From a virus, in IMG/VR virus record IMGVR_UViG_3300044655_002046: a stretch of DNA of 64,000 nucleotides; one strand, given 5' to 3'. The position numbers and the translations under genes were made by a program. Under the pieces are notes generated by a model. It worked only from the letters and a program-made list of their open reading frames with translations, ran no database searches and was not told the DNA's origin. Shown here in pieces: positions 16,868 to 44,500 of this stretch (positions are counted from its first letter, which is position 1; each line of letters starts with the position of its first letter).

Positions 16868-18088
16868 GTGTCTATAAGGTTACTGGTTCACCTAAACCAG
16901 ATATACACTACATACAACTACACGAATATGTCTGACTTATTAGTTAATGTCGATAACAGTTATCTTGATTTAGCTAGTGAACTGAATATTGATATCAATA
17001 GCATCACTGATAATATTGATATCAATACGAAGAATAGCCTCAATACGTTTTTTACCTCGTTGCCTAAGGACGTCGTCGTCCGCCGTCTCAATAGCGCTAG
17101 TTATCAAGATAGCCAGGAGTTGCGCTGGCCCTATCCAGGTCAGGATAACCCGAAGTTATTCGAGCAGTTCGAGGGTGTGAATGGTGTGATTGTGCAACTA
17201 CAGGGCGTAATACTACAGCACCAGGCGCAGCTAGACCATAGCTACTGGGATGAAGCTAGTAGTAAATACGTGCGCTTCTGTAATAGTGTGGGATATAAGC
17301 GCACCTACCCGGATGGCGTTAAGCTAATCCAGGGCCTCCCTGAGAACGTGTGTCTCAAGGGCGTAACTGAATACGGAGATCCACCTAATCGTCCTCTACC
17401 TATTATCGATAAGCTAGGCCTAATTGGTAAGAAGGGTATGACCTGCGGTGATTGTATTCGCGCAGGCCTGCACAATCAAGAGGTAGAGGGTAAGGATCGC
17501 CCTGTTACCTGTAGCCCAACGGGCCAGCTTATCTTCTATGTTACAGGCTTCACCACTCGTGTGCTGTCCAATAAGGGTGGTAAGGTTACATCTACCTTCA
17601 TTGATTATACAGTGAAGGAGCTCATGGATGATACTGGCTTTATCTTAATCATTCCCCTCAAGGCGAAGTCTACTCGCCGTGGTATCTGGGATGCCCCATC
17701 TAAACAGTGGACTAGTGTTGGTTATGAGGCTATGGTCAATAATCTCATCTACAAGCATAGCAAGGACTTCGATAATGCCCCTGCGGGCAAGCGCGAGATT
17801 ATTGCAATGAAGATGAGTCCTTATTTTCAGACCATTATCATTAGTATCGTACCGCCTAATCTCGAAGATAAGAATCCCAAGGCATCTCTAAACTTCGCAG
17901 TCAAGGAGGTTCCTGACTTAGGGGCTATTAAGGCAGCGCGCCAGTACTGGCAGCAGATTAACCCTGCTGGTGAGATTAATGTTCTTAATGAGGACAACTT
18001 TCGCAACACAAAGAATACTGATCTCTGTACTGCGCAAATTGTAGAAGAAGAAACAATTGAAATTAATGGGAATCCCTGGGCCGAATGA
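16868..18088 (+). CDS. Hypothetical protein (CxxC/C zinc-like motif, acidic C-terminus; possible ssDNA-binding or annealing protein)
   Basis: TCGDC..VTC motif, tail EEETIEINGNPWAE; likely start ATG 16928. Confidence 0.6.
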   Translation: MSIRLLVHLNQIYTTYNYTNMSDLLVNVDNSYLDLASELNIDINSITDNIDINTKNSLNTFFTSLPKDVVVRRLNSASYQDSQELRWPYPGQDNPKLFEQFEGVNGVIVQLQGVILQHQAQLDHSYWDEASSKYVRFCNSVGYKRTYPDGVKLIQGLPENVCLKGVTEYGDPPNRPLPIIDKLGLIGKKGMTCGDCIRAGLHNQEVEGKDRPVTCSPTGQLIFYVTGFTTRVLSNKGGKVTSTFIDYTVKELMDDTGFILIIPLKAKSTRRGIWDAPSKQWTSVGYEAMVNNLIYKHSKDFDNAPAGKREIIAMKMSPYFQTIIISIVPPNLEDKNPKASLNFAVKEVPDLGAIKAARQYWQQINPAGEINVLNEDNFRNTKNTDLCTAQIVEEETIEINGNPWAE

Positions 18089-19527
18089 TAATACGAGTAG
18101 ATGGTAACTGGGCCTATATACCAGAACTACTGCCAGGCTGTCATAGACATCTCTGTGCAGTGCTAGACGTAGAAGAAGCCCGCTCTATAGCAGGTATTCT
18201 TCCTATTGAACCTCTAGCTATACCCGCCCATTACCCTCTCTACTACCCAGATAGGCAGGGGGGCCGTCGCTTATTGGCGGGCCTCCTCCCCCTCTACATG
18301 GAGTTATTACGTCGGGCCGGCCATACTGCGACTCTAGAGTTACTCTCTCAACCAACGCTACTCGATCCTGATGTAGACGCCAGACTACGCCCCGACCAAC
18401 GAGAGGCAATAGCTAGTATATTATGGGGCTGTCGAGGCTACGTACGGGCTGCTACTGGTTATGGGAAGAGCGCTGTTATAGCTACGCTGATGAAGTACTT
18501 CGAGGCCCGACGACTCATAGTAGTACCCACCGTGCGTCTACTCTACCAGATGGCAGAGGATGTACAGGAGTGGGCGGGCCTCTCACCTGGGCTAGTAGGA
18601 GATGGTAATGATGATATTAGAGCTATGACTATCGCTACCGTAGATACTCTCTATGAGCGCATTAAACGGAGTGATAAGCGCTATATAGAATGGCTCTCTA
18701 GCATTGAGATCGCCGTGTTCGATGAGGCGCATACCTATATGAACGCAAGTGGTATCACTACTGCTCTGTCATTAGACAACGCGCGTTATAAGATTGGCAT
18801 GACTGCCACACCTACAAGCAAAAAGATGATGGAGGCTATATTCGGCCCCCTTCTCGGAGAGTATCAGGAAACTACTCTCATCGAGAGAGGCGTTATCATG
18901 CAGCCTAAGTTCGAGTTCTATCCCGCTCCTCCCGGTGTAGTAACGCGCGGCTCATTTGATAAGCCCTTTACTCCGTGGCTATATAATCAGCTATACGATA
19001 ACGTCATAGTTAATAATAGAGCCCGCAATGCGCTTATAGCGAAGCACGCGCGTCGGTTGATAAGTGAAGGCTATGGGCCTGTGCTTATCCTAGTACGTAA
19101 GGTAGGTACTACTAGTAAGAAGAAGAATCCTACTAGCCAAGCCCTTAATATACTGACTGAGCTAGAGGCGCTGGGTATATCTCTACCTATTATTCATGGT
19201 AAGAGCTCTAACATAACAGACGTACTAGACCAGCTGTCAGCGGGCTCTATATCTGGCGCTATAGCCAGTGAGGGTATCCTGAGCCTAGGTGTGAGTATAC
19301 GCTCTATTGGTAGTATAATCATGGCCGCCGGCGGTAAGGGAGGAGTAGACGGTGTATCTATGATTCAAAAGGTGGGCCGGGCCTTACGCCTTAAAGAGGG
19401 TAAGCGTAACCCACCTATAATTGACTTCGTGGATCCTCAGGGCTGGTTCCACTCTCAGAGTGAGACGCGCATTAGAATAGCGACTGATACATACGGCGGT
19501 GATCACGTTACTGTATTCACTACTTGA
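18085..19527 (+). CDS. SF2 (UvsW-like) DNA helicase
   Basis: LRPDQREA, ATGYGKS, DEAH, GMTAT, IQKVGRALR. Confidence 0.9.
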   Translation: MIIRVDGNWAYIPELLPGCHRHLCAVLDVEEARSIAGILPIEPLAIPAHYPLYYPDRQGGRRLLAGLLPLYMELLRRAGHTATLELLSQPTLLDPDVDARLRPDQREAIASILWGCRGYVRAATGYGKSAVIATLMKYFEARRLIVVPTVRLLYQMAEDVQEWAGLSPGLVGDGNDDIRAMTIATVDTLYERIKRSDKRYIEWLSSIEIAVFDEAHTYMNASGITTALSLDNARYKIGMTATPTSKKMMEAIFGPLLGEYQETTLIERGVIMQPKFEFYPAPPGVVTRGSFDKPFTPWLYNQLYDNVIVNNRARNALIAKHARRLISEGYGPVLILVRKVGTTSKKKNPTSQALNILTELEALGISLPIIHGKSSNITDVLDQLSAGSISGAIASEGILSLGVSIRSIGSIIMAAGGKGGVDGVSMIQKVGRALRLKEGKRNPPIIDFVDPQGWFHSQSETRIRIATDTYGGDHVTVFTT

Positions 19528-19537
19528 TACTAGCTTC

Positions 19538-19801
19538 CTAGCATGCCCATGCCCGGCGGGCCTTACATAAGCGCTTGTTAGGTGTCTTGCGACAGTCTAT
19601 ATCGTGCATATCCGCCTGACCTGCGCTACGCGCACAGAAGCTCTTGCGGCGGGCCGCATCCGCCTTGTTCTTGGGATTAGGAGCAGGGGGCTTCAGGTTA
19701 GAGCCAGTAGCGCGATTATAATCAGCGCGGCCCTTAGCTGTTAGCCCTCCGTCTGGATCCTTGTGCTCTTTCTTAAAAGTGAAGCTCTTCTTCTTAGCCA
19801 T
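19538..19801 (-). CDS. DUF6321-like basic cyanophage protein
   Basis: GGLTAKGR..YNRATGSNLKPP..RRKSFCAR..ARRAWAC. Confidence 0.75.
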   Translation of the reverse strand: MAKKKSFTFKKEHKDPDGGLTAKGRADYNRATGSNLKPPAPNPKNKADAARRKSFCARSAGQADMHDIDCRKTPNKRLCKARRAWAC

Positions 19802-19827
19802 AGTTATTAACAGACATTAGAAATTGT

Positions 19828-19945
19828 GTTAGAATTAATCTCAATCCCTAGTAGGGTTTGAGATTCACCATTATCATACTCAACGTAATTGGTTAATAGT
19901 AGGTGTTATTGTGTATTAGTTTTAAACCCTACTAGAGATTGAAAC
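19828..19945 (+). CRISPR. Degenerate repeat-spacer-repeat mini-array, type I-D-like repeats
   Basis: 37-mers at 19828-19864 and 19909-19945 match the Microcystis I-D repeat as I recall it (GTTCCAATTAATCTTAAACCCTATTAGGGATTGAAAC) at 29/37 and 28/37; 44-nt spacer; no cas genes in the window. Confidence 0.6.
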
Positions 19946-20012
19946 TGATTGAATTATGGTAGATTCCCAATCCGAATATTGATAAGATAACTTTTTATTT
20001 AGGAGACACAAA

Positions 20013-20279
20013 GTGATTACTGCAAAACAATTAAAAGAGTTTTTGGCGACCGTTGAAGACAATGCGCTTATTTTTATAGGGAAAAGCGGAGGGATGTCTT
20101 ATGGTTGCCAAGATTTTATGGTTAAGAAGGAATTGTTTATAGAGAAAGAAGACCAGTTTCTTGATTCTCTAATTTGGGACCACGACTTCGATGACGAAGA
20201 AATTGAAAAGCTTGAGAAGGAAGCTATCGAGCGACAAGCTGTCTATTTACAATACTACCCAGATTGGGGAGAAGATTAA
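20013..20279 (+). CDS. Acidic hypothetical protein between CRISPR-like repeats
   Basis: 88 aa, AGGAG RBS, GTG start, AT-rich island. Confidence 0.7.
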   Translation: MITAKQLKEFLATVEDNALIFIGKSGGMSYGCQDFMVKKELFIEKEDQFLDSLIWDHDFDDEEIEKLEKEAIERQAVYLQYYPDWGED

Positions 20280-20293
20280 ATATTAAGGAAAAA

Positions 20294-20330
20294 GAAACAA
20301 TTAAGTTTAAGCTTTATTAGGGATTGAAAC
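20294..20330 (+). CRISPR. Solitary type I-D-like repeat
   Basis: GAAACAATTAAGTTTAAGCTTTATTAGGGATTGAAAC; 29/37 to the recalled repeat, last 16 nt identical. Confidence 0.6.
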
Positions 20331-20342
20331 TGATACTAAACA

Positions 20343-20648
20343 ATGAATCAAACGCAACTAGATAAAAAGATCGATCAATTTCTAAGAAAGAAATTAACCA
20401 AAGCAGAACTAAAAGAGATGGGAATAAAACCACACTCTTTAATCTTAACAATACGCAATCTTATCGAAAGGTATCTATCTATTATTTGGACTAATCTTAA
20501 AGAAGATGTTCCTTATGGATGGGAGCAATTTTTTGAATGTTTTCGTTTATGGCAAGAATTAATATTTGAGAAAGACTGTACTAATTCTTGCAAAGGAATG
20601 TTTTTCTGGTTTCTTAGTGATAAGCAATGGTATCTTGGCAATGAATAA
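20343..20648 (+). CDS. Hypothetical protein (host-like)
   Basis: 101-aa ORF starting 12 nt after the solitary repeat. Confidence 0.6.
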   Translation: MNQTQLDKKIDQFLRKKLTKAELKEMGIKPHSLILTIRNLIERYLSIIWTNLKEDVPYGWEQFFECFRLWQELIFEKDCTNSCKGMFFWFLSDKQWYLGNE

Positions 20649-20688
20649 ACATTAAAACTTTATATGTAAAATTAATCGGAGTCACGAT

Positions 20689-21210
20689 ATGTTTTATGTA
20701 GAACTGTTAAATTCTTGCTATTCTTACTCTTCTATTCAAGACAGTCAGTCAGAAGAACCTGTTGAAAACTATCCTCAACAGAGTCAAGGACTTTTCAGTG
20801 ATATTAATAAAAACCGTCAAACTCAAAAAGGATTAGAAGGTTATTTACAAACCTTTCTAAATATTTGGAATCGAGAATTAGAGCCTGATGGTGAATTTAG
20901 TTGGCAGATTATTCGGTTTCAGTTTAAAGAAACAAAAAGTTTTATGTTAGCCATTGTTTTCTCTACGCAAGAGTACGGAGAAAAACCTCAACCCGTTTCT
21001 GAACTAGAACAAGAGCAACGAATAGAATCTCTTAATCAACTAATAAAACAGAAAAATGATTTAGTTTGTTCAGTTTCTGATACAGAAATTATCATTATTA
21101 AGCGCAATGAACAAAGACTATGGACTTGTAGTATGGCGCGTAAAGACGCAGGAGAGGCAATGCTTCAACTTCTTAATTTGCAAGAATCTCAAAAGAATCA
21201 AAAACCATGA
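20689..21210 (+). CDS. Host-like protein resembling the C-terminal fragment of a cyanobacterial N-6 DNA methylase
   Basis: SDTEIIIIKRNEQRLWTCSMARKDA motif recalled from such C-termini; no SAM-binding or NPP motifs present. Confidence 0.4.
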   Translation: MFYVELLNSCYSYSSIQDSQSEEPVENYPQQSQGLFSDINKNRQTQKGLEGYLQTFLNIWNRELEPDGEFSWQIIRFQFKETKSFMLAIVFSTQEYGEKPQPVSELEQEQRIESLNQLIKQKNDLVCSVSDTEIIIIKRNEQRLWTCSMARKDAGEAMLQLLNLQESQKNQKP

Positions 21211-21239
21211 TTGACAGGCATTAAGAATTATGGTAAGAT
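21211..21239 (+). promoter_or_regulatory. sigma70-type promoter for tRNA-Tyr
   Basis: TTGACA-17 nt-TAAGAT with extended TG, 12 nt before the tRNA. Confidence 0.8.
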
Positions 21240-21251
21240 AAATCTAAACAA

Positions 21252-21333
21252 GGGTTAGTGGCCGAGTAGTCGAAGGCGACAGACTGTAAATCTGTAGAGT
21301 AATTCCACGCTGGTGCAAATCCAGCCTAACCCA
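21252..21333 (+). tRNA. tRNA-Tyr(GTA)
   Basis: Acceptor GGGTTAG/CTAACCC, anticodon arm ACAGA-CTGTAAA-TCTGT, long variable arm, T arm GCTGG-TGCAAAT-CCAGC; CCA not encoded. Confidence 0.92.
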
Positions 21334-21362
21334 CTAAAAATAATAACCATAGGAGTAAATCA

Positions 21363-21635
21363 ATGGACAAAACAATTACAGTTTATGTCACAAAATACGC
21401 TTTGACAAGTGGCATTATAAAGTGCAATGGAAAAATCTGCCATGGGGTATTTTCCCCGGATAATCCCCGTAAATTTAATATGTTAATGCTAGACGGATTT
21501 ACCTCAAAAGAGTACGTGCTAACGGAAACAGAAGCTCAAAAAGTCTTTGAAGAAAAGAGACTTAAAGCAATTAAACAAACTGAAAGAAAACTTGAAAAAC
21601 TGAAGAATCTAAAAATGCAACTCAATGAGTATTAA
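21363..21635 (+). CDS. Conserved small phage protein
   Basis: GGAG RBS; VYVTKYALTSGI N-terminus and C-terminal coiled coil. Confidence 0.7.
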   Translation: MDKTITVYVTKYALTSGIIKCNGKICHGVFSPDNPRKFNMLMLDGFTSKEYVLTETEAQKVFEEKRLKAIKQTERKLEKLKNLKMQLNEY

Positions 21636-21674
21636 ATGAATTTATTAACTCGTGACTGGTGGCATAATTTAATA

Positions 21675-21874
21675 GGTACTAGAGACGGGAATTGAACCCG
21701 CAAAACTTAATTAAATCTACTCCTGACGAAACGCCCTTCCCTCACTCAATCTTTGCCAAGTTCGGTGGATTCGCAAATTTCAGTTTTGAAACAAAAAACA
21801 AAGGTATTTTTTGCATTAAGTCCCTTTTCGGTTGAAGGCTACGTTTCAGCCTTTAGCTACCAAGCTACTCTAGT
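21675..21874 (-). ncRNA. tRNA-shaped ~200-nt structured RNA with large internal insertion
   Basis: Acceptor ACTAGAG/CTCTAGT+A,CC; canonical T arm GCGGG-TTCAATT-CCCGT; long-range GAAACG/CGTTTC pairing; own promoter. Confidence 0.7.
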
Positions 21875-21880
21875 ATTTCA

Positions 21881-21909
21881 ATTTTATCAGAGACTTCTAA
21901 AATTGTCAA
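21881..21909 (-). promoter_or_regulatory. Near-consensus sigma70 promoter for the tRNA-like RNA
   Basis: Minus strand TTGACA (21909-21904), 17 nt, TAAAAT (21886-21881) with extended TG. Predicted +1 falls at 21874, the first acceptor base. Confidence 0.8.
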
Positions 21910-21926
21910 TCCTTGCATGACTACTT

Positions 21927-22514
21927 ATGTTCTTTATTATTATTCATGGTCTAAGTGGCTCAGGTAAGACTGAAGCCTCTAAGTGTTTATCTGAGTTACT
22001 GGGGGTTGAAGAGATACATCCTATAGCCCCGTGGAAGCGCTTCACAGAGAAGTACTATGAATTGCCAGAGGGGGCCCTTGATACAACAGAATACAAGGAG
22101 TATACGCCCAATGGTATGAATATAACCATGAATCAGTTTATGGTTAACCTCTATCACTTCATGAGAGAGAACGACCCCTACTTCTCTAGTCGCATGATGC
22201 GGACTGAGATACGGCGCCATATCAGCAAGGGTATACCTACTCTTCTATTGTCCCTACGCAACCTAGAGGAGGTAGAGGTAATAGAGAGTATGCTATCTAC
22301 ATTGATTAATAGATGTTGTATAGTAATCAATATAAGCCGCTCGTCTGAGCAGGTACTGAGTAGTGATGTTAACTATCAGGCTATTAAAGACCGTCTGGCT
22401 CGCCTTAATGGGGCGGGCGTTCATTATATAGACATAGTTAATGACTACCGCAGAGTATCAGACTTGAAGAAGGCACTAGAGAGATTGCTTAAGATTTATG
22501 TCAATACTAGATAA
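21927..22514 (+). CDS. P-loop nucleotide (dNMP) kinase-like protein
   Basis: N-terminal IIHGLSGSGKT; ~195 aa. Confidence 0.7.
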   Translation: MFFIIIHGLSGSGKTEASKCLSELLGVEEIHPIAPWKRFTEKYYELPEGALDTTEYKEYTPNGMNITMNQFMVNLYHFMRENDPYFSSRMMRTEIRRHISKGIPTLLLSLRNLEEVEVIESMLSTLINRCCIVINISRSSEQVLSSDVNYQAIKDRLARLNGAGVHYIDIVNDYRRVSDLKKALERLLKIYVNTR

Positions 22515-22953
22515 TAGGCCGTGGTACTACGTTATATATAAGGGCCCCGATTCTTATATAGGTGTGACTGATTATCTCGCGGCCGTGGCGTATGATAATC
22601 GGACTAGTCTAAGTTTTATGACGCAGCGGAGTAGATTACTCAACTACTTGAAGAAGGGTCGCGCAGATTACAAGACCAGTATTCGCCTAGCCCTCGCTAT
22701 CAAGCCCGCCAGTGTGGCAGGTTATGGTAACTATCTAGTAAGACAGAGGGGACACCTATCAGTTATTGAGCGGTGTGATGTTAGTACTCCTCATAGTCAT
22801 AAGCATTTGAAGTCCGCGCGGATCGAGCTGATTAGCTACCTCGAGGGCGAGATGAACCGATGGAGTAAAACAATTAGGACTATACGGAGATTAGATGCAG
22901 ATAACATTCAACGGCCCCTACCAGATGCTACTGGGCCCGGCAGGGAGTGGTAA
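22498..22953 (+). CDS. Hypothetical protein
   Basis: 151-aa ORF overlapping both neighbours. Confidence 0.65.
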   Translation: MSILDNRPWYYVIYKGPDSYIGVTDYLAAVAYDNRTSLSFMTQRSRLLNYLKKGRADYKTSIRLALAIKPASVAGYGNYLVRQRGHLSVIERCDVSTPHSHKHLKSARIELISYLEGEMNRWSKTIRTIRRLDADNIQRPLPDATGPGREW

Positions 22954-24073
22954 GACAACATACATACAGAGTTTGAGTAAGGCCCTCATTACTAGTAGTA
23001 CTGGCGTGAGCGCTATTAATGCAGGCGGTACTACCATTCACGCAGCCCTCCAGTTCTTCGACACTACTAGTCTATTACGCTCCGCTTCTGCTGGGACGCT
23101 GGCTACTAAGCTACGGGCTATATCTAATCTCTTCGATACCCTAGTCATAGATGAGATCAGCATGCTGCATGGCCCGCAGCTATCTATTATTCATTACGTA
23201 ATGGAGAAGAATAACATAAATATGAATCTCCTACTTGTGGGGGACTTCTGTCAGTTACCGCTAGTACCAGATAGGAAGGTTACTAGCACGCCGGTATATC
23301 AAACAGAATGCCTGCAGAACTTCGATATACAGTATTTACGGGAGGTCAGGCGTCAAAGCGACCCAGGCTTCATACAAGCACTGACTAGCGTAAGAGAAAG
23401 ACGGCCTCACGAAGCAGTAGATTGGTTCATGGATAATGTAGAGTTTGTCAATCAGATCGATAATAACTACGCGGGTACTACTATCCTGACTACTAATGAT
23501 AGTGTAGATAGATATAACGCCCTGCACCTAGCGCAACTAGAGGGGCCTAGTCGTCTCTACGCTAAGAATTATGTTATACCGAAGGGGGGCAGGGCCGCTC
23601 CTGAGTGGGGCCAAATACCTGAATCAGTAGAGCTAAGGAAAGGTGCCCGCGTTATTATACTTCGTAATAGGCTGCCTACATACGCTAATGGTGATATCGC
23701 TGTAGTCAAGGAGCTCATGACTGATACTATACTGGTGACAGTAGAACGTACCGGTCAGGAGACTATCATTGAATACGTGACACGAGATAATAAAGAGCTC
23801 GGCACTAACAAACTATTGGGGCGCTGCCACTACTTACCCGTTAGACTCGGTTATGCTCTCACTGTTCATCGTAGTCAGGGACTCACGCTTAATAACGTAC
23901 AGGCCCGTCTCAGTAATTTACGTTGGCTCAGCGGGGGCCTCTATACTATTCTTAGTCGTGTACGTCACTATAGCGGCCTCCGCCTGATAGGTACACGATC
24001 CACCTTCTGTGATAGTTGCTATATAGAGCCCTCTATTCTTAAATTCTATAATCAGTTAGGTACTAAATCATAA
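22895..24073 (+). CDS. SF1B (PIF1/RecD-like) helicase
   Basis: GPAGSGKT, IDEISM, GDFCQLP, VRRQSD, ALTVHRSQG, LSRV. Confidence 0.92.
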   Translation: MQITFNGPYQMLLGPAGSGKTTYIQSLSKALITSSTGVSAINAGGTTIHAALQFFDTTSLLRSASAGTLATKLRAISNLFDTLVIDEISMLHGPQLSIIHYVMEKNNINMNLLLVGDFCQLPLVPDRKVTSTPVYQTECLQNFDIQYLREVRRQSDPGFIQALTSVRERRPHEAVDWFMDNVEFVNQIDNNYAGTTILTTNDSVDRYNALHLAQLEGPSRLYAKNYVIPKGGRAAPEWGQIPESVELRKGARVIILRNRLPTYANGDIAVVKELMTDTILVTVERTGQETIIEYVTRDNKELGTNKLLGRCHYLPVRLGYALTVHRSQGLTLNNVQARLSNLRWLSGGLYTILSRVRHYSGLRLIGTRSTFCDSCYIEPSILKFYNQLGTKS

Positions 24074-41551: not shown

Positions 41552-44500
41552 TTAGCCCATGCGCAGCATTACCTCTCTATCAAGTCTACCATCTAGCCTA
41601 TTGACCCAGAGACTATTATCGTCACTGGGTCTTGTTGTGACTGTTACTGTATTGCCGTTCTGCTCGGCGCTGGTCTCCTGAGATATTAGTGCTATATGGC
41701 CCCGGCGTGCCGCCTCCTCTGTTATCTCCTTCAACTCGGGGCTGAAGTTACCATTATTGCTTATGATGGCTCGAGACTGAGTGGCTGGTGCAGGCCCGCC
41801 TACTGTCTTACTAACGGCTAGGGCTAGCCGGGCCACCTCTGTATTATAGGGGGTAGCTGACTGGGCTAGTCTATTCATAGTATCTGACACAGTAGCGCGA
41901 ATAGCCGCTATGTTGTTCTTATACTGGCCTAGCAACTGTTGCTTAGCGTATACTTTTATGGAGCCCCAGTCACTACTGGCCCGCGCTGACTTGACCCAGC
42001 TGGTCTGCCCGAATATCTCTACGTTGAATAGGCGGGCCCGTCGTGCTATCTCCCTTTCTGTGAATGGATCTAGTAGTTGTATGTTACTATCTCCTCCAGC
42101 AGGTGTTGGTAGTAGCATAGCTGCCGTTCTACTACCTGAGGAGTCCTTGCTAGCGTCAGCCCATCTATCCGCGTTGTATTGGAAGGCCCGCCCTGGCATA
42201 GCTAGTGTCATGCCGCCTGGCCCCTGCTTATAGCGCGCTAGTAGATAATCTGTTGGCGTGACAAATATATTCAGCCCTGTTATCTTACCCATACCCTCTA
42301 CTGCAGCGCTACTACCGCGGGCCAGCGTCTCGTGTATACCTGGGGCGGAAGTTATAACTGCCCCTCCTAGGAGGCCTACTGCACCTGATTTAGCTATTAG
42401 ACCCCAGCCCGCGCCCTTGAACCAGCTTGCGGCCGCCCCAACTAGAGACATCGCACCTAGAGCCATACCTATGGCTGATGTGATGACGCCCTTGACTTGA
42501 TTGTTACCGAATGATAGAAGACTGGGTATCTTATCTCCTATTATGTCGCCTATACCTCTATCTACACCAGCCCAGAACCTCTCACTAGCCTCACTGAAGT
42601 CCTGCCAGGCATCGCCCTTAGTGACTGCCTCTAGGTGCTTATAGCCCCATGCAAATAGTCCTGTTGCTATACCTACGCCTATTGCTACCGCTCCTATTGC
42701 TGCTACTACGGGGGCAGCTACGGGGGCGGCTGCGACTGCCGCACCTAGAGCTCCTATCGCCTTAGCAGCTATTAGACCTGTGACTATACCAGTTATAGAG
42801 TTACGCACTGTCATACCAGCGTGCTCCTCGAGTAATTGTCTCTCTGCCTCAGTGTATAACTCATCCCGTTGAGATCGGCCGAGTCTCACGAATGCGCTAC
42901 CTATATCTAGACTCTCTATGCCCCCCCAGGCTGTCATAATGCCGCCGCCTAATGCCTGAAGCGATGCCCGTGCGCTGAGCCGCGCCTTAAAAAATGGGTA
43001 GACTTTTATCTCTGAGGGGTCAGCTATAGGAGCCTTACCGCTATCCCAGTGGAATATACGTTTCCATTGAGGGGCCTTCTTCCGCTCTATATCTATAATG
43101 CCGCCCTGCTTATTGGCCCAGTCCTCTACTCTCTGATTGCGACTACGCAATACTTCTATATCAGTAGTGGCCCCAGCCATTATCAATGCCTTCTCCTTGA
43201 TGTCCTTGAATAGGAAGCCTAGTTCATTTAGTACGCTAGCGCTTATGATACGTATCTGTTCGTCTGATGTCAGACCACGGAAGCGCGATGATATCATAAA
43301 GGCATCGCCAGGGCTGGGGTTAAGGGATATCTTACGTATAACCTCGCGCTCTATCGTCTCCTTGATGACCTCGCGTATACGACGTCTTAGGAATGAGTCA
43401 GCATCTCCATACTGTATCTTGAATGTCTCCTCGCTTAATCCTAATAGTGAGTAGGCCTTCTGTGAGAAGGGGGCGGGCCCGTTATTAATTGATATATCGC
43501 TATCTAGTAGGTTTAGTATCTTAGTCAGGAAGCTATCGGGCCCGCGGCTTATAGTGTCATCTAGACTATCTACTAATTTACGTACTAGATCGTCCCTATC
43601 AGTTATACTGCGTACAGTACTCTCGTTTATAATAGGGGCATCGTATACGTGCGCCATTAGAGTATCCATCCCGTCATTTGCAGTCATACTCATGAAGCTA
43701 TTGAGGAAATGACCTATTCTCTTCCCTACCTCTCCGCCCATGCCGTCAGGTGGACTAGCGTGTAGCGTATAGGTGAAGCGGCCCCGCTTCACCTCATACT
43801 TCATGCGGTTCTCTCCTAGGGGGCTCTTAGCCTGAGGTGCCGTTATAATAAAATACTCTGCCCTCTCACCGGCCCATAGAACACGCAGCTCAGTCATAAC
43901 GTTATCAATAGCTCGTGCTTGCTTACCTCCCTCTAGTACGCCAAATAAACTCATCATCGCGCCTATCGCGCCTGCAATCATAGTGGCTGCAACACCCCCA
44001 GCTAGACTCGTCATAATGGGTGTGTTGATTAGTGGTATCTTACCCCAGAAGTTAACTAAGAAGGATCCCATCATCCCCAGGATATTGCCCTCCTCTGTCC
44101 TCATTGATCTAGGCGCGCCCATCTCCAGCCAGTCTCCATCTGCAGCGTATATATCTACCTGTCTACCTCCTGTACGTCGTTCCGACGAGTACTTAATGAA
44201 GTTCTCGTATTGCACGAAGTTGAGAGGGTTAGCTACTCTGGATACCAGGCCAGGGAATGCAGTCTCTGCTAGTAATCGCATGTCCCCCTTACTCAGCGAT
44301 GCGATTAGCGTGTCTAGATATGACTTGGGTTTCTTACTATCCCGGGGATTCATATTATCAGGATTACCTAGATTAGTCATCTCAGATACTAGTGACTCTG
44401 GCCGCTGATATGCGAAGTTGCGTATTACTTGCAGACGACTACTCAGTGCTATGTTCATCAATGGATCCGCTCTATAGAGGGCCAGGCTGGCTCTATTGAA

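Follow-up and report, generated by a model that had tools for sequence, protein, structure and literature searches.

Viral solitary repeats (SRUs) and RNA anti-CRISPRs (Faure et al. 2019; Camara-Wilpert et al. 2023, PMC10651486) are among the described elements closest to the locus analysed here, and they share with it cas-less, host-type repeats in intergenic phage DNA, a predicted promoter ahead of the repeats and small ORFs adjoining them; SRUs of the I-D type have already been listed for viral contigs. Viral mini-arrays, which turn the Cas proteins of the host on related viruses (Medvedeva et al. 2019; reviewed in PMC11656645), have in common with it the order repeat-spacer-repeat and a "spacer" that matches related viruses. 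Cyanophage vB_AphaS-CL131 carries a type V-U2 (C2c8) CRISPR-Cas system (PMC6293099) and Nostoc phage N-1 a cas-less array (PMC4916379). Solitary repeats and mini-arrays have been described before, as has a V-U2 system in a cyanophage; our literature search found no report of any of them in Microcystis phages.

The locus lies in a 64-kb stretch of viral DNA (the window) and departs from each of these systems. Compared with SRUs and RNA anti-CRISPRs, its three repeat units are degenerate (copies 1 and 2 are 78% identical to the host repeat), clustered and drawn from two types of repeat, a stable hairpin is predicted for only one of the three, and copy 3 has the ancestry of an array's trailer repeat. 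The repeat strings of the locus do not occur in the supplements of the RNA anti-CRISPR paper (PMC10651486), insofar as these were accessible. Compared with viral mini-arrays, the window lacks the defining identity to the host repeat, and its "spacer" is backbone sequence at a homologous site, whereas a textbook mini-array is found in the same phage family at another locus. Unlike CL131 and N-1, the window has neither effector nor array but single decayed units only; phage contigs described below (L159-L163 and L170, L numbers denoting retrieved loci) are of the same kind as those two phages, with a C2c8/TnpB-like effector and an array.

Results

Positions 18000-24000 of the window are 92-94% identical (megablast) to Ma-LMM01, MaMV-DC and MaMV-DH01, DL01, DL02, CH01 and CH02, all of them Fukuivirus phages whose host is Microcystis aeruginosa, and by this match the window is from a Ma-LMM01-like phage (Fukuivirus). 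An earlier note on this DNA had described three 37-mers as degenerate host type I-D repeats, and these are present on the plus strand (Table 1), with 44 nt between copies 1 and 2 and 348 nt, containing ORF88, between copies 2 and 3; solitary repeats are defined as having no other repeat-like unit within ~100 bp, a distance that copies 1 and 2 fall short of and copy 3 exceeds. The match to the Microcystis I-D repeat that the note gives (28-29 of 37 positions) is confirmed by the published DR1 and DR1b, 37-mers ending in ATTGAAAC that are tied to M. aeruginosa subtype I-D (PMC4428289, Table 3). DR1 accompanies 200 spacers in FACHB-524, the laboratory host of the MaMV phages (PMC11855584). Elsewhere in the 64-kb window the best match to DR1/DR1b is 22/37, and the maximum in 200 shuffles was 26. 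The attribution of all three units to type I-D holds for copies 1 and 2, which are nearer to DR1/DR1b, but not for copy 3, which is nearer to the repeat of C2c8 (type V-U2) arrays and of their trailer type. A plasmid search with the module gave 23 matches in M. aeruginosa NIES-2481 plasmid p1; they form an array that immediately follows a gene whose product is annotated as type V protein C2c8, and copy 3 agrees with this array's repeat at 34 of 37 positions.

Table 1. Features of the locus between the DUF6321 gene and tRNA-Tyr (positions in the window)
Feature	Positions	Strand	Description
DUF6321 gene (Ma-LMM01 gp164 homologue)	19538-19801	-	Pfam PF19846, E 2e-26; left conserved border
Predicted sigma-70 promoter P+	19807-19835	+	TTAACA-17-TAGAAT with TG; consensus scan
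Copy 1	19828-19864	+	I-D-like unit, 29/37 to DR1, reshaped into palindrome
S1 block	19865-19908		44 nt between copies 1 and 2; backbone sequence
Copy 2	19909-19945	+	I-D (DR1b)-like unit, 28-29/37; retains ATTGAAAC; stem broken (C20.A28)
Extended -10-like TGATAAGAT	19980-19988	+	Upstream of ORF88; read from sequence
ORF88	20013-20279	+	88-aa small acidic protein
Copy 3	20294-20330	+	C2c8-array-type repeat, 34/37; 28-29/37 to DR1/DR1b
ORF101	20343-20648	+	Family is first gene after C2c8 arrays in other phage contigs
ORF173 (Ma-LMM01 gp163-like)	20689-21210	+	PHROG 36071, E 3e-108; last cassette gene
Second promoter-like site	21211-21239	+	Consensus scan
tRNA-Tyr	21252-21333	+	Right conserved border of variable locus

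The DR1 family is marked by a length of 37 nt, a CCC...GGG stem and the 3' handle ATTGAAAC. The handle-type end that had been noted for all three units is intact in copies 2 and 3 but lost in copy 1, which ends GAGAT and has no GAAAC; of the stems, that of copy 1 is present, that of copy 3 relies on wobble pairing and that of copy 2 is broken. The TGAT seen after copies 2 and 3 is there in the window but is not kept in relatives, which have TAAT or TGAC instead. Where a mini-array would have repeats near-identical to the host's and to each other, copies 1 and 2 are 69% alike. Rfam gave CRISPR-DR2 on the minus strand of copy 2 at 21.7 bits, against a threshold of 37, and no other CRISPR-DR in the whole window. 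Across the wider repeat family the 3-bp stem pairs are CCC/GGG, CCT/GGG, CCT/AGG, CTT/GGG, CTT/AGG and CTT/AAG, and a copy 3 variant in L175/L179 has CTT/GAG. The 3-bp stem of copy 3 is held by a G-U wobble, for which a natural variant has a compensated U-A pair; the stem changes are all C>T or G>A, and A+T drift alone could yield them. As the earlier note supposed, the three units, which are intergenic and downstream of a predicted sigma-70 promoter, stem from the host repeat family: they are genuine, decayed descendants of the Microcystis CRISPR repeat, in its I-D DR1 form for copies 1 and 2 and in its C2c8/V-U2 variant for copy 3.

The repeat found in the C2c8 arrays of Microcystis is a variant form of the host's I-D repeat. 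On one Microcystis chromosome (L140; genome G497, contig C81, positions 1-1900) a C2c8-like gene is accompanied by a leader and a C2c8-type first repeat, which is joined directly to a long I-D DR1 array via one hybrid repeat. A C2c8-type repeat that runs into a DR1 array makes the two repeat variants one interchangeable family, and C2c8 may share I-D arrays or have invaded them.

Complete C2c8 effectors of two kinds, with arrays, are also found on contigs of uncultured Microcystis tailed phages (L159-L163, L170, L144-L149). One kind is a 627-aa protein that scores 471 bits against NCBIfam NF038192 (C2c8; cut-off 350) and is 90% identical to the plasmid C2c8; on these metagenome contigs an array of 7-10 C2c8-type repeats lies downstream of it, and the first gene after the array is of the ORF101 family. 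The other kind, of 558-567 aa (369 bits against the NF038192 cut-off of 350), is followed by its own 36-nt repeats, then by one or two I-D-like units and then by an ORF101-type gene, a hybrid array. The C2c8 contigs further encode a very long tape-measure gene, NlpC/P60, an Rcc01698_C tail protein and Gp3-like genes, and match no phage record except for a gp163-like gene and tRNA-Tyr, which have 90% nucleotide identity to Fukuiviruses. Inner repeats of their arrays begin GAAG and trailer-end repeats begin GAAACAATTAAG, as copy 3 does; the G4>A change is common to copy 3, which ends 12 nt upstream of the ORF101 start codon, and to the trailer-end repeats directly before ORF101-family genes (L144-L148, L159-L163). 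Because both the start of the repeat and its position before an ORF101-family gene are shared, copy 3 is the counterpart of an array trailer repeat. The terminal repeats of C2c8 phages are decayed at the handle, whereas copies 2 and 3 retain the 8-nt ATTGAAAC.

In a type V-U2 locus the effector gene adjoins the array, and no such gene adjoins the units here. The reported absence of cas genes from the window stands for C2c8, the cas gene screened for (tblastn of the two C2c8 types, best E 0.011 over 31 aa). None of the 55 unique spacers of the phage and plasmid C2c8 arrays matched the window, and array-wide searches against phages matched only repeat-like sites.

The DUF6321 gene is present in all relatives, and between it and tRNA-Tyr they carry from none (L181 and L183-L185) to eight (L150 and L155) small genes. 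All three units are missing from Ma-LMM01 and MaMV-DC; these two, CH02 and L157 have a G+C hairpin allele in place of copies 1 and 2, and the Ma-LMM01/L157 allele diverges at TTAATC within copy 1. Several relatives that are otherwise similar lack copy 3, and an intergenic allele without a repeat alternates with it. L155, L158 and L174 have a third unit, which keeps to the 81-nt period, and other solitary units stand at ORF borders: they flank ORF123 in L149, follow ORF95 in L146 and precede ORF62 in L155. Divergence from L150, L154 and L173 is ~2-3% in DUF6321, copy 1, S1 and copy 2 and 8-10% directly after copy 2, where backbone that has diverged by 2% gives way to cassette DNA that has diverged by 8-10%. 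Mosaic breakpoints and repeat units coincide, as judged by inspection of a small set of close relatives. Among seven close variants, the pi of copy 3 is 0.039 and that at third codon positions 0.019-0.022, and a value above that of third positions gives no sign of special constraint.

Other traces of rearrangement were seen in the same region. Ma-LMM01 gp163 (208 aa; L001 3013-3105, compared with 20600-20700 of the window) opens with residues encoded by the 3' end of an ORF101-type gene (FLSDKQWYLGN), to which the 173-aa protein is joined in frame, a scar of a deletion that removed the module. In L149 (2795-3166) an ORF of 123 aa, whose HNH region resembles that of IscB (NCBIfam guided_IscB, 31 bits, below the cut-off), is flanked on both sides by solitary C2c8/I-D-like units.

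The repeat-44 nt-repeat arrangement, which the earlier note had offered as a possible mini-array, is not convincing as one when set beside its counterparts in relatives. In the repeat-less loci L180-L185, S1 lies beside DUF6321 in the same orientation, identical at 42-43 of 44 positions (95-100%). Conservation of S1 at this level between units that are only 69% alike argues against spacer acquisition with repeat duplication, and S1 looks like backbone bracketed by imported units rather than an acquired spacer; it may hold the DUF6321 promoter (TATGAT, minus strand). S1 is preceded by GTT in L180 and by ATT in L181-L185, and GTT fits the M. aeruginosa I-D PAM, GTH (PMC7648086). Its length of 44 nt is at the extreme of the 33-44 nt of host spacers (PMC4428289). 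The targets that the note had suggested looking for did not emerge: neither S1 nor the 44-nt stretches that follow copies 2 and 3 matched anything beyond homologous positions in the phage and plasmid collections, 17 Microcystis genomes and the retrieved loci.

Copy 1 is a near-perfect palindrome with 14-bp arms (19837-19850 and 19852-19865, 13/14 paired), and its hairpin has a predicted energy of -12.8 kcal/mol (z -3.8) on either strand, compared with -5.3 for the host repeat; three of its departures from DR1 each make a Watson-Crick pair, giving a 14-bp stem. Copy 2, with a C.A stem mismatch in every variant, folds at -2.1 kcal/mol and copy 3 at -1.4, and such weak folds beside that of the host repeat make the proposed cutting of a transcript by host Cas6 doubtful. 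Pairing between copies 1 and 2 is possible (-38 kcal/mol over 144 nt, z -4.25). In natural relatives the core of copy 1 is found in both orientations, with changes at 19845, 19851 and 19857, which suits a symmetric role more than it suits recognition by Cas6. Within the promoter of the second CRISPR locus described below, a 12-nt palindrome likewise occurs in both orientations (L188 ~650-665 versus L186 ~938-950). Near-palindromes in both orientations among close relatives suggest frequent hairpin-mediated flipping.

The -10 of P+ overlaps the first 8 nt of copy 1, and the predicted transcription start, at ~19842, would fall inside this unit. In the minimal relatives L181 and L183-L185, P+ drives tRNA-Tyr directly, and Ma-LMM01 genes have been reported to use host-type promoters. 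Upstream of ORF88, TGATAAGAT resembles the tRNA promoter's -10 region (82%) and is kept before ORF88 in L157, a relative without copies 1 and 2; it probably gives ORF88 its own promoter, which travels with the gene in relatives. A candidate sigma-70 promoter directly after copy 2 (TTGAAA-15-TAGATT) was dropped for its wrong spacing and was not reported by the scan. Contigs from four RNA libraries of one study span the whole module; being assembled contigs, they are silent on strand, ends and RNA nature. The same libraries contain short contigs in which a C2c8-type repeat is joined to an unrelated spacer, and C2c8-type arrays may be expressed in the waters of that study.

The proposal that the small ORFs are Acr candidates found no backing. 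No Pfam or PHROG family matched ORF88 or ORF101, neither was found at the DNA level in the 17 Microcystis genomes, their AF2 models were poor (pLDDT 57 and 64, respectively) and had no Foldseek match in the PDB at E<=0.001, and with no Acr or other family detected they are candidates on size and position only. ORF101 has more than 100 relatives, and a homologue of ORF88 lies just upstream of the C2c8-like gene in L149. The stretch 20338-20371, comprising 5 nt before the ORF101/ORF95 start and the first 29 nt of the gene, is ~97% identical across two unrelated phage backbones (L144-L163), the ORF101/ORF95 proteins overall being ~65% identical; it could be a recombination junction or an RNA-level signal.

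A second CRISPR locus lies outside the window in relatives. Ma-LMM01 has three units that match DR1 at 36/37 (NC_008562.1, 35,763-35,945; L186 964-1183) and are labelled in GenBank as "56 bp repeat unit" only; MaMV-DL01, DL02, CH01 and CH02 match this locus and MaMV-DC is without it. In MaMV-DL01, the relative whose locus was read (PP681323.1 ~44,281-44,393; L188 682-794), two perfect 37/37 I-D repeats enclose a 39-nt spacer behind a consensus promoter, TTGACA-17-TATAAT. The spacer matches Ma-LMM01 at 39/39 beside a GTT (I-D) PAM, and DL01's own copy of the target site has four seed-position differences. At the studied locus the DL01 module is 99.5% identical to that of the window. The second locus makes a much stronger candidate for a mini-array or SRU than the studied one does, and the idea that these phages exploit host I-D repeats, put forward for the window, is borne out there: a perfect I-D mini-array in relatives means that the lineage engages the host I-D system, an interaction that is clearly selected.

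Discussion

The reading that we favor, at a probability of roughly 0.5, is that the units are array-derived relics at recombination joints in a cassette region that these phages share with others, copy 1 having been put to new use as a palindrome at the promoter. Ma-LMM01-like myophages would exchange the DUF6321-tRNA-Tyr region by recombination with uncultured Microcystis tailed phages, which have a complete C2c8 effector and array ahead of the same cassette genes. We envision that the units, as portable patches of homology and as hairpins, persist and promote the exchange of cassettes, and that copy 1 has been reshaped for a regulatory or 5'-hairpin role at the start of divergent transcripts; the units would form no working mini-array, and a decoy effect on Cas proteins, if any, would be secondary. 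In its favor are the units' ancestry, the syntenic position of copy 3 and of trailer repeats, breakpoints that coincide with the units, the variable gene content of the locus, the backbone nature of S1, the lack of special constraint on copy 3, the weak hairpins of copies 2 and 3 and the over-stabilised, handle-less palindrome of copy 1. Against it are the intact ATTGAAAC of copies 2 and 3, the family's perfect I-D mini-array elsewhere, the GTT before S1 in L180 and the wobble-paired or compensated stem of copy 3, which hints at constraint at the RNA level although drift can mimic it. Promoter-stem-loop (PeSL) elements, reported by Arbiol and colleagues in 2010, reportedly flank shuffled small ORFs in the hyperplastic regions of T4-type phages. 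The likeness lies in short promoter and hairpin elements at accessory-ORF borders that serve as homology for cassette exchange; unlike PeSL, the hairpin elements of the window derive from CRISPR repeats, and exchange is here inferred from sequence comparison.

The intact handle in repeats of the host family, a stem held by wobble or compensation and a predicted promoter upstream would also suit an RNA anti-CRISPR, in which copies 2 and 3, mimicking in the transcript the I-D repeat and the C2c8-array repeat, respectively, bind and divert Cas6d, Cas5d/Cas7d or C2c8, with ORF88 and/or ORF101 as protein partners (Acr or Aca-like). Moreover, copy 3 is 34/37 to a C2c8-type repeat present in RNA-library contigs, I-D SRUs are catalogued in viral contigs, a Racr-Acr bicistron is known, and host I-D is the main system holding spacers against known phages and plasmids. 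We nevertheless consider this reading less likely than the first, as copies 1 and 2 are only 78% like the host repeat and, being 44 nt apart, would be discarded by the published SRU pipeline; the stem of copy 2 is broken in every variant, and copies 2 and 3 fold at -2.1 and -1.4 kcal/mol; copy 3 is without excess conservation and absent from several similar relatives, and Ma-LMM01 and MaMV-DC lack all three units. Operators of the divergent promoters had been the earlier note's fallback, and for copy 1 this does at least as well as the note's main proposal. The units, copy 1 foremost, would then be bound as operators or regulatory palindromes by a phage regulator (for example of the ORF101 family) that controls the divergent promoters. 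Copy 1 is far more palindromic than the host repeat, three of its changes each add a Watson-Crick pair, and it overlaps the predicted +1 of P+, is equal on both strands and tolerates flipping. ORF101-family genes always adjoin such repeats, and the conserved N-terminus of ORF101 is helix-turn-helix-like by eye. However, ORF101 yielded no DNA-binding family or fold, the palindromes of copies 2 and 3 are poor, and trailer-repeat ancestry accounts for the position of copy 3 without an operator role, all of which makes operators an improbable explanation of the locus.

We regard as very improbable a mini-array, working now or until recently, that borrows host I-D Cas proteins, in which copy 1-S1-copy 2 would yield a crRNA against phages with S1 beside DUF6321 and thereby act in inter-phage competition. 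S1 does match related phage contigs at 42-43/44, in a shared block that ends within a few bases of the repeat frames; GTT, which conforms to the I-D PAM GTH, precedes it in L180; three relatives (L155/L158/L174) have the third unit at the 81-nt period; and a perfect example exists at another locus, its spacer matching Ma-LMM01 at 39/39 beside GTT. Yet the repeats are 69% alike and 78% like the host's, the upstream unit would yield the handle UUUGAGAU rather than AUUGAAAC, the downstream unit has no Cas6 hairpin, S1 is at the 44-nt extreme of the host range (33-44 nt), and L181-L185 have ATT in place of GTH. The "protospacer" moreover sits at the homologous place and in the homologous orientation, as a shared backbone predicts, and a pristine spacer between heavily decayed repeats is contrary to acquisition. 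More speculatively, the cassette region could be a CRISPR-array-derived platform with genes in spacer positions, whose repeats would serve both as joints for accessory-gene swaps between unrelated Microcystis phages and, in the transcript, as Cas6d/C2c8 sites that release or regulate single mRNAs and titrate the host I-D and V-U2 machinery; we hold this to be a long shot.

An arms race shapes the blooms of Microcystis, and I-D CRISPR is the main holder of anti-phage spacers in it. The Ma-LMM01-type phages, the reference Microcystis phages, carry elements derived from CRISPR repeats and share a cassette region with phages that encode a whole C2c8 CRISPR-Cas system, which links solitary repeats, mini-arrays and phage-borne type V systems in one host-phage community. 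Material for experiments is at hand, since the M. aeruginosa I-D system works in E. coli and MaMV-DL01 and DH01 are in culture with their host FACHB-524. Even if the units are mere relics of arrays, they still record the decay of arrays and the seeding of recombination in phage genomes. Elsewhere in this phage group, MaMV-DH01 (L002 2066-3238) carries an inserted "transposase" gene (390 aa) that separates the helicase from the gp165 homologue and is absent from the window.
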